Positions 1,946-6,044 of a stretch of 10,108 nucleotides of DNA are shown here, in pieces (the first letter of the stretch is position 1; each line of letters opens with the position of its first letter). The DNA is from Escherichia coli. GTDB lineage: Bacteria > Pseudomonadota > Gammaproteobacteria > Enterobacterales > Enterobacteriaceae. Both the position numbers and the translations under genes were made by a program. The DNA lies in assembly GCF_003334335.1 (NCBI RefSeq), contig NZ_QOWQ01000065.1. One strand, written 5' to 3'. Under the pieces are notes generated by a model. That model was not told the DNA's origin. It searched no databases and was given only the letters and a program-made list of their open reading frames with translations.

Positions 1946-3013
1946 ATGAGTCAACATCAATATTATCCACAGCTGAAATGGAAGCCTGCTGAATATGAAT
2001 CTCTGATGCTTTTAGATCAAACTACGCTCTCTGGTTTTACTCCGATCATTACCATTCCAGACATAGACTGGGATTATGAAAACGAATGCTACAAGAAGAG
2101 TTTGAGTTCTTACTTATCTGACTTCGGTATTAACCTTGCGGCATCCTGGAAAGCCAATCGTCCTGTTTTGCTGGATGTTAAATATTTAGATAAACATGGT
2201 TCGAGCCGCCATCATCCTCTAGATATGTGTATCCAAGATGCTAGAGTAAATGGTAAGGAAATTATCCCTGTTGTTTCTCCCGCATATTCAACAAACTATA
2301 TACATGCTGTTCAACGCAACTTAATCAATGGGCTCGCTATATCTATCCCCCCCCAGACATGGCACCAATTCACAAGTCTGGTTAACCACTTAAATATTCA
2401 TCCTAGTTTAATTGATGTAATCATTGATTTTGGAGATATTCAAAACGCAACTGATAGTTTAAAACAACAAGCATTAAGCATGGTCAACACATTATCAGGC
2501 CAAGCTCCGTGGAGAAACTTGATTTTATCTTCAACCGCATACCCAGCATCACAGGCAGGGATACCGCAACATCAAGTTCATCATATTCCGCGCCATGAAT
2601 ACGATCTTTGGATGTACGTAGTACAGAATTTTAGCAATGGAAGAACGCCAAGTTTTAGTGATTATCCCACCGCTAGCTCTACCATTACGAGCGTAGACCC
2701 ACGCTTCATGTCTCAGTATGTCTCAGTGAGATATTCGAACGATACCTCATGGATCTTTGTAAAAGGTACCGCAGTTAAAGGAAATGGATGGGGCCAAACT
2801 AAAAACTTATGTACTACCCTTGTTAGTTCGCCAGAGTATCAAGTCTTTGGTTCCAAATTTAGTTGGGGGGATGATTACATTTACCAAAGATCATTAGGCG
2901 CTAACAAATCTGGCGGCTCTAAAGAATGGCGTAAAGTTGCACATACGCACCATATTACGTTAGTCGTGAGACAGCTTTATTGGTTGGCGCAGACTCAGCC
3001 TGCCAAGCCTTAA
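1946..3013 (+). CDS. Hypothetical protein, 355 aa, cargo-island gene 1 (function unknown)
   Basis: Longest plus-strand ORF in the window. Strong SD (TAAGGAG at 1934..1940) about 5 nt before the ATG at 1946. Possible -10 TATACT at 1910..1915. Markedly A+T-rich codon usage compared with flanking phage genes. No motif I can assign to a known family. Confidence 0.75.
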   Translation: MSQHQYYPQLKWKPAEYESLMLLDQTTLSGFTPIITIPDIDWDYENECYKKSLSSYLSDFGINLAASWKANRPVLLDVKYLDKHGSSRHHPLDMCIQDARVNGKEIIPVVSPAYSTNYIHAVQRNLINGLAISIPPQTWHQFTSLVNHLNIHPSLIDVIIDFGDIQNATDSLKQQALSMVNTLSGQAPWRNLILSSTAYPASQAGIPQHQVHHIPRHEYDLWMYVVQNFSNGRTPSFSDYPTASSTITSVDPRFMSQYVSVRYSNDTSWIFVKGTAVKGNGWGQTKNLCTTLVSSPEYQVFGSKFSWGDDYIYQRSLGANKSGGSKEWRKVAHTHHITLVVRQLYWLAQTQPAKP

Positions 3014-3575
3014 CTTTCCAGCCTACGCGTTTCTTTAAGGCTGTTCTGACTTCAAGCCTGAGATTCGCTATTGGAATATTTTCCGCAATAATATTCCATA
3101 ACTCAAATCGGGGCTTGCTTTTGATTCCTTTGGAATAGCCCCATCGTTCAAGTACGTCGATACATTCATCTTTCCAAAGCAATTGAGCGAGCATCAATGT
3201 GTCATGGTTTCGATTAAGCTTTTCTCCACGCATGTGCTTTATAAGAATGGCGCCTTTTGGCCCAACAGAAACCGTTTTAACGCCCCACCAACCTGGGATT
3301 AACTTTAATGCTCCCTCAAGATGTTTCTCAGCTACGACAAGAGTAACCTTGTCCATTACAGAAGAATAATGCTTGATTTGAAGAGGCAAACGCTCCAAAG
3401 AGTCATATTCACTTTTGAGCTCGTACCCGTGTATAACACCATTTATTACAGCAATGTCTGCTCTACTGGCGCCAAGGGATATGGAAAATTCATCGACCAC
3501 AAGGCAGTCTGGATCTAAATGCGATTCTTTCAAAAGCTTATGATGCACCGCGAACCTAACATCTTGATCTTTCAT
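2955..3575 (-). CDS. Hypothetical protein, 206 aa, with PD-(D/E)xK-like nuclease motif; cargo-island gene 2
   Basis: Minus ORF with strong SD (AAGGAG, 5-nt spacer) before the ATG at 3575. N-terminal region VVDEFSISLGASRADIAVINGVIHGYELKSEYD has the E ... hD ... hExK spacing typical of the restriction-endonuclease-like (PD-(D/E)xK) fold. A+T-rich. Convergent with, and overlapping by 59 nt, the 355-aa gene. Confidence 0.75.
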   Translation of the reverse strand: MKDQDVRFAVHHKLLKESHLDPDCLVVDEFSISLGASRADIAVINGVIHGYELKSEYDSLERLPLQIKHYSSVMDKVTLVVAEKHLEGALKLIPGWWGVKTVSVGPKGAILIKHMRGEKLNRNHDTLMLAQLLWKDECIDVLERWGYSKGIKSKPRFELWNIIAENIPIANLRLEVRTALKKRVGWKVKAWQAESAPTNKAVSRLT

Positions 3576-3925
3576 GACTTCTCCTTACTCCCTCCGTTAT
3601 TGAATTATAGCGCACTGCATTTTACTGCATTTGAGAGATTTGACCACTTCAATCACAAAATGCTTATCTGCAGCAACAAGATTCATAGCCATACGACTAT
3701 GGTGATTACCTTTTGTCTGGAAAACTGACCATTCCACGAAGATCAGATAGGTCTATAGAATCTTGGTTTGTCATAGCGTTCGCCTTACTTTGAGATGAAC
3801 CTTTGCTGCATAGGAGATCAGCCCGTCAAGGCTCACCAGCACTAACTGACTACTCAAAGGCTCATTCCAAAGGGTTTGGTTCGACGTGGTTGAGTGCACT
3901 GCGGTGCGCGGTGAAATACCTGTAC

Positions 3926-3954
3926 AAAAATGCCCCGCATCTGCGAGGCATTTT
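3926..3954 (-). terminator. Intrinsic terminator-like hairpin downstream of Rz/Rz1
   Basis: AAAAATGCC-CCGCATCTGCGA-GGCATTTT: perfect 8-bp stem with the A-run on the plus side, so the minus-strand RNA has the stem followed by a U-run. Lies 38 nt past the Rz stop at 3992. Confidence 0.5.
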
Positions 3955-3991
3955 CCTGAAAGTCACGTATTAAATTTCAGTGAAATTAAAA

Positions 3992-4429
3992 TTATTTTAA
4001 GCACTGCGTCCTGATGTACTCCTGCAGGTAGTTGACCTGCGCGGTTATCTTGTCGATTCCACTTCGGAGACGGTAATAATTGAGTTCAGCATCTGCTGTA
4101 AGTCTTGGGCTTTCTCCATTGCCCATGCCGCTGGCTCCGGTCGTTGACTTTGCACAGGTAGCGGCGACTTGCAGGCGCTTACGCCCAGCAGAAACATCAG
4201 CACGGAGGCTTTCGATAGTCGCGTTAGCATCAGCAAGCTCCTTTGTATATCTGGCATCGAGTTCTGCTACGTCACGTTGACGCTTCTGCATATCAGCGAT
4301 TGTGGATGTGGCTTTATCGCGCTGCTCTTTGTAGGTTATGGCGTTATCACGGTAATGATTCAGCCCCAGACTAAGCGCACCACAGGCCACCAGCAGGGCA
4401 ATGATGACCACGCACAGTACGCGGTTCAT
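3992..4429 (-). CDS. Rz: Rz, i-spanin (inner-membrane spanin subunit)
   Basis: 145-aa ORF with N-terminal TM segment (VLCVVIIALLVACGALSL) followed by NHYRDNAITYKEQRDK..., periplasmic coiled-coil-like region and C-terminal ...NYLQEYIRTQC. Matches lambda Rz as I recall it (…VNHYRDNAITYKAQRDK…). Confidence 0.9.
   Translation of the reverse strand: MNRVLCVVIIALLVACGALSLGLNHYRDNAITYKEQRDKATSTIADMQKRQRDVAELDARYTKELADANATIESLRADVSAGRKRLQVAATCAKSTTGASGMGNGESPRLTADAELNYYRLRSGIDKITAQVNYLQEYIRTQCLK
4045..4230 (-). CDS. Rz1: Rz1, o-spanin lipoprotein, embedded in +1 frame of Rz
   Basis: ORF wholly inside Rz in another frame. From the ATG at 4230 (preceded by AGGAG with 7-nt spacer): MLTRLSKASVLMFLLGVSAC-KSPLPVQSQRPEPAAW..., i.e. 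signal peptide, lipobox-like VSAC, then a Pro-rich mature part. The track's upstream ATG at 4257 is an alternative start. Confidence 0.8.
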   Translation of the reverse strand: MLTRLSKASVLMFLLGVSACKSPLPVQSQRPEPAAWAMEKAQDLQQMLNSIITVSEVESTR

Positions 4430-4430
4430 T

Positions 4431-4529
4431 TCACCACCAGCGTATCTGACCGATGAAATAACCGGAGGCCATAATCACAAACACCAGCCAGATAAGAATG
4501 AACTTCCAGGTGGATAATTTTTCAGCCAT
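4431..4529 (-). CDS. Putative small hydrophobic peptide (32 aa) between endolysin and Rz
   Basis: Internal ATG of track ORF 4431..4700, preceded by GGGAG with 9-nt spacer. Product MAEKLSTWKFILIWLVFVIMASGYFIGQIRWW is a single predicted TM helix. The stop is 1 nt before the Rz ATG. The longer 89-codon reading would run through the hairpin at 4605..4637, so the short form is preferred. Coding status unproven. Confidence 0.3.
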   Translation of the reverse strand: MAEKLSTWKFILIWLVFVIMASGYFIGQIRWW

Positions 4530-4604
4530 CACTCGAATCTCCCGAATCAGTTTGCTAAAATCAAACACACTTTCTCCTTTGACTTTTCCGGAGTCAGGAA
4601 ACAC

Positions 4605-4637
4605 AAAACCCCGCTTGCAGCCAACAAACGGGGTTTT
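4605..4637. terminator. Hairpin with flanking A/T runs (bidirectional terminator-like) between endolysin and small ORF
   Basis: AAAACCCCG-(15-nt loop)-CGGGGTTTT, followed by TTTTTACTTTTATTC on the plus strand; the reverse complement is also followed by TTTTGTGTTT. Lies ~90 nt downstream of the endolysin stop on the minus strand. Confidence 0.4.
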
Positions 4638-4727
4638 TACTTTTATTCTCTTAGTTTTTGTCAGTTCGCAGGATTTCGTGTTATCCGTCCGTGTGAGCAA
4701 ACCGCATTTTTCAGCAAAATATTCTGC

Positions 4728-5261
4728 TTATCTGTCAATTCCCCAGCACGCCAGCGCACTCTCCTGGTCGCGACGGGATACCTGACCGTAACAGTTGTTT
4801 GAGCGAATACGGCAGTCTCTGCCACCGTCCTTAATCCACCAGCGAATCGCCTCACACGCTCCCCTGCGATCACCTGCATTAATTCGTTTATAAAACGTCG
4901 ACGGAAAACACTTACCGGGGCCAATGTTGTACGGACAGAATGACGCGATCCCCGCTTTCTGGGGTTCACTCAATGGCACTCTGATGTTTTTCTCCACCCA
5001 TGCCAGCGCCTTATCACGCTCAATGGCGTTAACCCGGTCGCATTTTTCCTTCGACAACTTCATGCCCGGAACGACAGGTTTGCCATCCACCAGGATGGCA
5101 CCGCGGCAGATGGTCCAGATACCCGCGCCATCACGGTATGCCGTGGTGTGGTTACCTTCCTTTTCATCCAGAAACTGGTCGAGAATGTCAGGCGCAGGCG
5201 CACCAGCGGCAATCAGCGCCAGAACGGCAGCCGACAGGCCGTATCTGATTTTTGCGTTCAT
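4728..5261 (-). CDS. R: Phage endolysin, T4-lysozyme-like (GH24), probable SAR-type
   Basis: 177-aa ORF. Catalytic E-x8-D-x5-T motif (EGNHTTAYRDGAGIWT). N-terminal Gly/Ala-rich weakly hydrophobic segment (YGLSAAVLALIAAGAPAP) typical of signal-anchor-release endolysins. Resembles phage 21 R / E. coli Qin-prophage lysozyme as I recall them. Confidence 0.9.
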   Translation of the reverse strand: MNAKIRYGLSAAVLALIAAGAPAPDILDQFLDEKEGNHTTAYRDGAGIWTICRGAILVDGKPVVPGMKLSKEKCDRVNAIERDKALAWVEKNIRVPLSEPQKAGIASFCPYNIGPGKCFPSTFYKRINAGDRRGACEAIRWWIKDGGRDCRIRSNNCYGQVSRRDQESALACWGIDR

Positions 5262-5324
5262 GGATATTTATCAGGATTTATCGGTTTCTGCCCACGGACA
5301 GGTTTATCTGTTCCGGTCAGTGAC

Positions 5325-5675
5325 TTAAGGTTGTGATTCCGGAGGAGTCTTCAGAGAACCAGTAATTCTTCCCGGTAGCTTTCCTTTGTAGGTTATCCAT
5401 ACATTCTGCGCCTCTAAAATTACGGGGCGCTTTTCCGGCGACTGCTCATCCCCTTCACATAACCCGGCAGCAACATCCAGGAAGACCTGTCTGATGCTCC
5501 TTCTGGCTGCTGCCTCATAAAACTCCAGCGCGGCACCTTCAACACGGTCCAGCGAGATGTCCAGGTCAAAAATTTCACCGTCAAAGCGTTTTTTGTCCCG
5601 TAACGCTAAAGTTACCGTAACTTTATTCTCAAAATTGCGGATCCCTTTCACAATCAGTTTATAGTTTTGAGTCAT
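5325..5675 (-). CDS. Hypothetical protein, 116 aa, likely DUF1327 (YdfR-like), between holin and endolysin
   Basis: Soluble, acidic ORF (MTQNYKLIVKGIRNFENKVTVTLALRDKKRFDGEIFDLDISLDRVEGAALEFYEAAARRS...). Starts 4 nt after the holin stop, with GGGGAGAG upstream. Same position as ydfR in the K-12 Qin lysis cassette (essQ-ydfR-rrrQ). Family assignment is from memory, not a search. Confidence 0.65.
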   Translation of the reverse strand: MTQNYKLIVKGIRNFENKVTVTLALRDKKRFDGEIFDLDISLDRVEGAALEFYEAAARRSIRQVFLDVAAGLCEGDEQSPEKRPVILEAQNVWITYKGKLPGRITGSLKTPPESQP

Positions 5676-5679
5676 TGAA

Positions 5680-5895
5680 TTACTCTCCCCGTGCAGCCTT
5701 ACGACGGTCCTCTCTGATTTTGAAATACAGGTTAGTCAGATATGTCAGCAGCCCAAACAGCAGACTCCCCAGCACGCCTATTGCCGCCCACTGAGACGGG
5801 GAAACCCTGTCCAGCAACTGCAGGAACCAGTAGCCCGTTCCCACCGCTGACGTGGTGTATGACACACCTGTTGTGATTTTTTCCATCTGGTACAT
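5680..5895 (-). CDS. S: Class II holin, phage-21 S-like pinholin with dual start
   Basis: From the ATG at 5895: [71 protein letters not shown] (71 aa). Near-identical in pattern to phage 21 S (MKSMDKISTG...[24 protein letters not shown]...[21 protein letters not shown]). Two in-frame Met codons 3 codons apart give the antiholin/holin dual-start arrangement. GGAG lies 7 nt upstream. The track's longer 106-codon ORF to 6000 is probably read-through of upstream sequence. Confidence 0.85.
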
Positions 5896-6044
5896 ACCCC
5901 GTCTCCCGTTATCCGGAAGCTGACAACAATAAAAAAGCCACCAGTTAAGTACTGATGGCTCTGATAACTCATGCAGGCGTCTCAGACGACCCACTGACAC
6001 TACCGGTGAGTTTAACGATACCTTCCATTTGACTGGCTCACTTT

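Follow-up and report, generated by a model that had tools for sequence, protein, structure and literature searches.

A candidate antisense-gated cassette for a small membrane protein between the endolysin and i-spanin genes of a Stx-phage-like Escherichia coli prophage

The late region and its features

The window, that is the whole stretch of 10,108 nucleotides that was analysed, comes from a lambdoid prophage that resembles Stx phages and represents its late region, wherein the relevant genes all lie on the minus strand (Table 1). In the gap between the endolysin and Rz genes, a sequence-only reading had described a strong hairpin with flanking A/U runs and a 32-codon hydrophobic ORF, which might be non-coding, might modulate the spanin or holin, or might be a type I-toxin-like peptide whose antisense RNA would include the hairpin. 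This study finds that the gap holds a longer, 45-codon gene accompanied by the hairpin as a conserved unit, and that the 5′ end of the gene carries a conserved promoter-like motif facing backwards.

Table 1. Features of the window, listed in the order of minus-strand transcription
Feature	Position	Strand	Description
DNA methylase, then three tRNAs and two STnc100 copies, then sialate esterase	6045-7898 (esterase)	minus	upstream part of the window
Class II holin, then YdfR-family gene	5325-5675 (YdfR family)	minus	between sialate esterase and lysozyme
Endolysin	4728-5261	minus	lysozyme with N-terminal SAR-like segment; upstream neighbour of the small gene
Two-way intrinsic-terminator-like hairpin	4605-4637	both	minus flank UUUUGUGUUUCC, plus flank UUUUUACUUUUAUU
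Predicted leader stem-loop	4573-4601	minus	UUUCCU-GACU would pair with AGUC-AGGAGA and occlude the Shine-Dalgarno sequence
Shine-Dalgarno AAGGAG	4574-4579	minus	5 nt before GTG 4568; relatives carry GGGAGAAC there
45-codon gene	4431-4568	minus	GTG start, TGA stop; VFDFSKLIREIRVMAEKLSTWKFILIWLVFVIMASGYFIGQIRWW; single-TM protein predicted
32-codon ORF of the sequence-only reading	4431-4529	minus	codons 14-45 of the 45-codon gene
Proposed cis-antisense RNA, about 75 nt	4567-4642	plus	predicted ends; anti-SD CUCCUU, 5′ stem-loop, A-rich linker, terminator
Proposed antisense promoter	4533-4561	plus	-35 TCGAAT (4533-4538), 17-nt spacer, TG (4553-4554), TAAAAT (4556-4561)
TGA-A-ATG junction of the small ORF with Rz	4427-4433	minus	arrangement typical of translational coupling
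Rz i-spanin, Rz1 embedded	3992-4429	minus	downstream neighbour; RefSeq name 'lysis protein'
Two-gene insert, then small terminase subunit			end of the window in minus-strand order, past Rz

Several neighbouring elements were observed besides the small gene. Upstream of the esterase, the stretch with the two STnc100 sRNA copies and the three tRNA genes (8121-8330, 8608-8798 and 8877-9123, minus strand) has the Stx-phage layout, and stx genes are absent from the window. After the esterase and just upstream of the holin start lies a second strong terminator-like hairpin (5934-5962, minus strand) with 12 pairs and a T-run; sRNAs of the AgvB, AsxR and Pas types map near the holin region in related prophages, and no Rfam family matched at 5934-5962. 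The insert between Rz and the small terminase subunit is a convergent gene pair with a slight overlap (1946-3013, plus strand, and 2955-3575, minus strand), with the RefSeq names 'beta family protein' and 'sce7726 family protein' and PADLOC matches to PD-Lambda-2_C (E 4e-32) and 'cll' (E 4e-31), and is probably an anti-phage defence moron. The approximately 90 nt past the endolysin stop (4638-4727, minus strand) hold a small inverted repeat, GGATAACACGAAATCC. Stx phages of E. coli and a P22-like prophage of Salmonella (L007 3840-3925) both keep this stretch, and differ in the modules beyond it. On the plus strand, a 95-codon ORF (4498-4785), recorded as hypothetical protein EC_CP1639_38 in phage CP-1639, crosses the hairpin and continues antisense to the endolysin end; it is probably spurious, because copies differ freely from one another in its N-terminal part.

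Phages without the insert join the endolysin directly to the spanin gene, and in K-12 Qin rrrQ overlaps rzpQ. At the same place EDL933 carries a 60-aa and a 43-aa hydrophobic ORF, and VT2-Sakai and the Sakai prophages Sp6, Sp10 and Sp15 carry ant and a 43-aa ORF. A family of hydrophobic ORFs of 43-48 aa, phrog_4906, lies directly before Rz in many Stx phages without a hairpin of its own, at sites that include VT2-Sakai (L135 3086-3217, unannotated in the original record), Sakai ECs_5741 and ECs_1966, and L004 2881-3012.

The 45-codon gene, its protein and its junction with Rz

The elements that the sequence-only reading had named are all present as described, namely the ATG at 4529-4527, the GGGAG at 4543-4539, the peptide MAEKLSTWKF...IRWW and the stop TGA at 4433-4431. 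The hydrophobic ORF is coding, and only its 32-codon boundary has to be given up, as the gene runs for 45 codons from a GTG at 4568-4566. Both the GTG start and the length of 45 codons recur in 24 of 24 distinct copies collected from E. coli, E. fergusonii and Salmonella prophages and phage SEN34, and the PHROG 6632 profile matches over its full length (residues 1-45 on positions 1-45 of 45, E 6.4e-30). In some RefSeq genomes the 45-aa form is given as hypothetical protein WP_000459345.1, the phage CP-1639 record labels it 'putative bacteriophage protein', and most genomes leave the ORF unannotated. Distant homologues of about 40% identity keep an N-terminal xSK(L/I)I(R/K)E(I/L/V)RxM, then W(K/R)F, then the hydrophobic stretch; this N-terminal motif is kept at the protein level although the DNA differs, and therefore the 13 residues preceding the previously chosen ATG are translated.

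Sequence comparison indicates that the reading frame is under purifying selection. The comparison of synonymous with nonsynonymous changes across related prophages, which had been put forward as a check on the frame, gave a pooled pN/pS of 0.31 in the coding frame versus 0.82 and 1.97 in the two other frames. A non-coding spacer with a terminator and an accidental ORF, with which the lack of annotation in most RefSeq genomes would agree, is contradicted by this frame-specific selection, by the constant start and length, and by a protein family detectable to about 40% identity, and is thus extremely improbable.

Met14, at which the shorter ORF begins, is invariant in the 24 distinct copies and has an SD-like GGGAG 9 nt upstream (4539-4543), codons 9-10 always reading (A/C)GG GAG, AAG GAG or ATG GAG; it is possibly a second start that would give a 32-aa product. 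An alternative explanation is that the functional product is the 32-aa peptide from ATG 4529, coupled to Rz and specific for the spanin or holin, or that two isoforms of 45 and 32 aa are made, resembling the dual starts of holin and antiholin. The conserved Rz junction and the maintenance of GGAG through the rare Arg codons CGG and AGG speak for it. However, distant homologues, of which P0108 and P0111 lack Met14, preserve the first 13 residues as protein sequence, the GTG with its strong SD is invariant, and the partner endolysin in E. fergusonii is a soluble GH19 enzyme, which excludes a tie to SAR endolysins; with relatives also located outside lysis cassettes, this alternative seems decidedly improbable.

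The 45-aa protein has the size and hydrophobicity of type I toxins (small membrane peptides under about 60 aa), with a maximum 17-residue Kyte-Doolittle hydropathy of 2.5, and AlphaFold2 (pLDDT 81) predicts an amphipathic helix at residues 4-17 and a transmembrane helix at residues 20-44 with a short break between them. A profile search of 1.84 billion representative proteins retrieved no more than 50 clusters formed at 50% identity, which makes this a narrow family. The protein had no NCBIfam match, only a chance match in Pfam-A (E 0.12), and none to Hok/Gef, Ldr, TisB or other Pfam toxin families, and the PADLOC defence models matched neither it nor the 60-, 43- and 50-aa proteins. Literature searches with the peptide strings, WP_000459345.1 and PHROG 6632 gave no matches; the small ORF had no match in the Sakai small-gene Ribo-seq supplements, and the microproteome preprint had no relevant text.

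The stop codon lies one base from the Rz ATG (4429), as originally described, and this one-base junction is kept across three i-spanin families, with the variants TGACATG in Salmonella and TGATATG in E. fergusonii, where the spanin is of the DUF2514 type. Among the best 80 viral-contig copies, the protein is identical in all 80 and the TGAAATG junction is present in 79. The position between endolysin and i-spanin, with the stop-N-ATG junction, is shared by E. coli, a Salmonella P22-like prophage and E. fergusonii, whose lysis cassettes are unrelated: one combines an S21-type holin, a SAR lysozyme and a PF03245 spanin, another a Phage_holin_2_3, a SAR lysozyme and a PF03245 spanin, and that of E. 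fergusonii a Phage_holin_8, the soluble GH19 endolysin and the DUF2514 spanin. The 361-nt region is found at at least 80% coverage in 871 of 5426 complete E. coli genomes, Shiga-toxin phages included.

The hairpin, the leader and a candidate antisense RNA

The strong hairpin with A/U-run flanks was borne out by both the terminator scan and the fold statistics. It ranks strongest among the terminator-like sites scanned in 3800-6200, and its local fold of approximately -29 kcal/mol (z -3.7 to -3.9) was equalled in stability by at most 2 of 200 shuffles. In the minus-strand RNA its stem has 14 bp and its loop 5 nt, and UUUUGUGUUU comes directly after it. Across lineages, an A-run (consensus AAGC(G/A)AAA) precedes the hairpin and a U-run follows it, so that U-tracts are provided in both directions.

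In each of the 12 lineages examined, the start codon is preceded at a distance of 23-39 nt by the end of a terminator-like hairpin of -14 to -29 kcal/mol, the distance to the GTG being 36 nt in the window; these lineages include eight metagenomic relatives of about 40% identity in unrelated contexts, whose flanks are otherwise without similarity. The hairpin interiors vary among lineages, the outer stem covaries between AU, GC and CG pairs, and nothing 5′ of the hairpin is conserved across contexts. Since the hairpin accompanies the small ORF in every context examined, it is not merely the terminator of the endolysin, and it belongs to the small gene rather than to the endolysin.

The genomic contexts are late operons throughout, and they extend beyond lysis. 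In SEN34-like phages the small gene lies between the baseplate spike and wedge genes. Of the distant relatives, that of L138 follows the tail-tip gene J and that of L141 belongs to an operon for head assembly, and for those of L139 and L222 the setting is poorly defined. Relatives in baseplate, tail-fibre and head operons argue against a spanin-specific function and weaken the earlier suggestion of a dedicated spanin or holin modulator. Tandem hairpin and small-ORF cassettes were also observed, at L011 3672-4138 and L223 2440-2860; in the E. fergusonii tandem, the product of the first unit is an unrelated hydrophobic protein of 50 aa that likewise ends in KWW, and a TGATATG junction follows both units.

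This mobility, with varied insertion sites between late genes, tandem copies and a predicted single-pass membrane protein, would also fit a lysogenic-conversion moron unrelated to lysis, for example one for superinfection exclusion like HK97 gp15. However, the promoter scan found no sense promoter for the small gene, and PADLOC returned no match for its protein; with a terminator directly upstream and no sense promoter, expression of the gene in the lysogen is unlikely, and we consider the moron explanation improbable.

Between hairpin and gene lies a leader of approximately 35 nt, CCTTGA-N4-5-GCAAGGGAGAAC, which together with the hairpin also precedes the 60-aa ORF family, and a similar hairpin-leader unit precedes the 50-aa hydrophobic ORF of E. 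fergusonii. Homology between the 45-aa and 60-aa families was unsupported (hhalign E 0.12), though chimeric forms do exist. Read on the opposite strand, the leader stem-loop corresponds to the 5′ stem-loop that the proposed antisense RNA would form. Other lineages have stems of different sequence at the leader position (CCUUG/CAAGG, CGUUA/UAACG, CCUAU/AUAGG); strict column-wise covariation failed for this stem, as alignment-based counting fails where stems are shifted between lineages, and occlusion of the SD by the predicted stem is only modestly above that of shuffled leaders.

Opposite codons 3-6 of the gene lies an antisense -10 motif, TGCTAAAAT, facing the sense codons TTT AGC AAA, and the whole proposed promoter lies opposite codons 3-12. 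In general form, sense AT-NTT-AGC-A at nt 7-15 reads on the antisense strand as TGC-TAA(A/T/G)AT, an extended -10. Ser5 is encoded by AGC in 10 of 10 lineages having the S-K/R motif, codon 4 is NTT even where it encodes Leu (CTT), and a TGn-extended antisense -10 is present in 13 of 14 lineages, L224 being without the TG extension. Synonymous divergence is halved in codons 2-13 (pS 0.26 versus 0.56), which a backward-facing -10 on the opposite strand would explain. The unrelated ORFs carry their antisense -10s at the same nt 7-12, TAGTCA-18-TATACT in the 60-aa ORF and TGC-TAGACT in the 50-aa ORF, and none is ever present in the 35-aa pseudo-ORF that adjoins the hairpin on its opposite flank and served as an internal control.

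The null was a synonymous recoding of each ORF that followed the codon usage of E. coli, in which an antisense -10 of equal quality arises at that position at a frequency of 0.002-0.5 per lineage, typically about 10%. The motifs of L137, L138, L139 and L224 scarcely exceed this null (p 0.15-0.51), and the Fisher combination over 10 divergent lineages, approximately 5e-5, overstates their independence. The antisense -35 is weak, being TCGAAT or TCGCAA 17 nt upstream and matching 3 of 6 positions in the window, and the promoter scan made no call at 4533-4561. A plus-strand promoter-like sequence at 4446-4475 (CTGACC-18-CATAAT) was rejected as the antisense source, as it is not conserved in the E. 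fergusonii, Salmonella and SEN34 copies.

An RNA starting at the candidate promoter and ending at the hairpin would fold at -21.8 kcal/mol (z -3.63; 0 of 200 shuffles equally stable), and for every one of the 16 lineages and ORF families examined a two-hairpin shape is predicted, built from differing stem sequences. No Rfam family matched the proposed RNA at gathering and E-value thresholds, and the Hfq-CRAC list of O157 Sakai has no sRNA at an endolysin-Rz gap, the three Sakai prophages examined carrying a different insert there. The Pas sRNAs of these prophages are located elsewhere, not at the small-ORF site. Between tail genes I and J of Sakai Sp15 (L227 1500-1730, minus strand), an analogous hairpin-bracketed layout was observed, in which a hairpin and a second terminator accompany a non-hydrophobic ORF of 39 codons. 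The opposite strand carries EcOnc22, a candidate sRNA of about 85 nt that is bound by Hfq and has homologues in Sp11 and Sp14.

These data bear on a rival explanation, namely a plain accessory late gene without antisense RNA, whose 45-aa protein tunes the holin or spanin or serves morphogenesis. The hairpin would then be an ordinary intercistronic terminator or RNA-stability element passed by antiterminated polymerase, and the '-10 motif' would reflect shared ancestry and AT-rich codon bias near the start; the motif is indeed partly explained in this way, because AT-rich codons near start codons are favoured anyway. The recurrence of the endolysin/i-spanin position with its one-base junction in three unrelated lysis cassettes, the restriction to late operons, the weak -35 and the missing Rfam match agree with it, as do LysZ and the Mu releasin as precedents for lysis factors encoded in lysis cassettes. 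However, it leaves unexplained the constant distance of the 5′ hairpin in all contexts, the fixation of AGC and NTT at synonymous sites, and the leader and same-position -10 common to unrelated ORFs, and a holin or spanin role fits poorly with relatives outside lysis cassettes. We therefore rate it as a serious candidate that is nevertheless rather unlikely.

The fixed 5′ hairpin, the shared leader before unrelated ORFs, the synonymous constraint and the backward-facing -10 are most simply accounted for if the conserved unit is a gene for an antisense RNA that overlaps a small membrane-protein gene at its 5′ end. Among the interpretations of the sequence-only reading, the type I-like one appears to fit best; its antisense component gains comparative support from the conserved -10 aimed at the SD and hairpin, with the toxicity of the peptide staying putative.

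Proposed mechanism and relation to known systems

[quoted passage not shown] The cassette would be a compact mobile unit of a two-way terminator, a leader of about 35 nt with the SD in a stem-loop, the 45-codon gene and an opposite-strand promoter. The putative antisense RNA would start at about the start codon, pair with the leader and its SD and terminate some 75 nt on, at the hairpin, which would thus both end this RNA and form a barrier to transcription arriving from the endolysin. Stray sense transcription from the endolysin side would accordingly be halted there in the lysogen, and the antisense RNA would block translation of leak-through mRNA and probably trigger its cleavage. After induction, read-through of the hairpin would depend on antitermination: Q-modified RNA polymerase would pass the hairpin, the late mRNA would exceed the antisense RNA, and the membrane protein would be made, with Rz translated in step through the TGA-A-ATG junction. 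The 45-aa protein may be toxic or lysis-related, and by analogy with hokW-sokW (PMC8621323) membrane damage or lysis timing is its most plausible role.

A broader and more tentative view, which we regard as possible though doubtful, is that the locus stands for an undescribed, widespread family of type I-like cassettes in late operons. A constitutive RNA of about 75 nt and the terminator would silence the peptide in the lysogen and be overridden by late antiterminated transcription; the peptide would be an auxiliary lysis factor, acting on lysis timing or permeabilising the membrane and setting i-spanin output by translational coupling. The RNA and hairpin would form a portable 'silencer', by which small hydrophobic ORFs of at least three unrelated kinds have been captured.

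The cassette is common, as the genome counts above indicate, yet it is usually unannotated and without a described function. If the proposal is true, a fourth regulated component would be added to the textbook lysis cassette of holin, endolysin and spanin, a new family of type I-like modules with a portable RNA and terminator would be defined, and a handle would be gained on how prophages silence membrane-damaging late genes; in Stx phages, altered lysis timing would mean altered release of toxin and phage. For annotation, the true gene has 45 codons and a GTG start, and a probable, predicted sRNA gene overlaps it on the opposite strand.

In phages, antisense control is exerted by the P22 sar RNA on ant and by lambda OOP on cII. 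The candidate described here would likewise be a short antisense RNA of a phage, directed at the site where translation of an adjacent gene begins; it differs in that the target is a small membrane protein, the site is a lysis cassette and the whole unit is mobile. Morons, in the definition of Juhala and Hendrix, are promoter-gene-terminator units inserted between late genes of lambdoid phages, HK97 gp15 being an example. As with morons, the small gene is an extra gene at late-gene junctions that is missing from otherwise similar phages. However, the upstream sigma-70 promoter and downstream terminator of a moron are absent: the terminator lies on the 5′ side, no terminator separates the end of the gene from the adjoining Rz, and the sole promoter-like element faces backwards.

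Type I loci with a 5′-overlapping antisense RNA include hok/sok, ldr/rdl and symE/symR, and tandem copies are common among such loci. The cassette resembles them in its small hydrophobic single-pass peptide, its tandem copies, its prophage location and its predicted short antisense RNA, which would extend over the ribosome-binding site as far as an intrinsic terminator. Its peptide has no sequence relation to Hok or Ldr, and the locus is unusual among type I loci in that it has no sense promoter, lies behind a terminator inside an antiterminated late operon and is joined to the i-spanin by the one-base stop-N-ATG junction, its toxicity and RNA being putative. As it has no sense promoter, the small gene is not a self-contained toxin-antitoxin unit.

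Uncharacterised membrane proteins of lysis cassettes can be lysis factors, as LysZ (bioRxiv 10.1101/2025.06.24.661397) and the Mu releasin (PMC9239132) illustrate, and the small gene shares with these two, with P2 LysA and with holin/antiholin dual starts the encoding of a small membrane protein beside endolysin and spanin; its possible second start and predicted SD-occluding stem recall lambda S. The Mu releasin gp25 is a 99-aa DUF2730 protein of N-out/C-in topology with a cytoplasmic domain of about 70 aa, and it pairs with a SAR endolysin (PMC9239132). The 45-aa protein differs in size and topology, lacks DUF2730 and also occurs outside lysis cassettes; a role as releasin or SAR-endolysin helper was rejected on these grounds and because of the soluble GH19 partner in E. 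fergusonii. The nearest system in biology is hokW-sokW of the Stx2 prophage Sp5, a type I system for which lysis assistance has been reported, as it aids lysis after induction and doubles phage release (PMC8621323).
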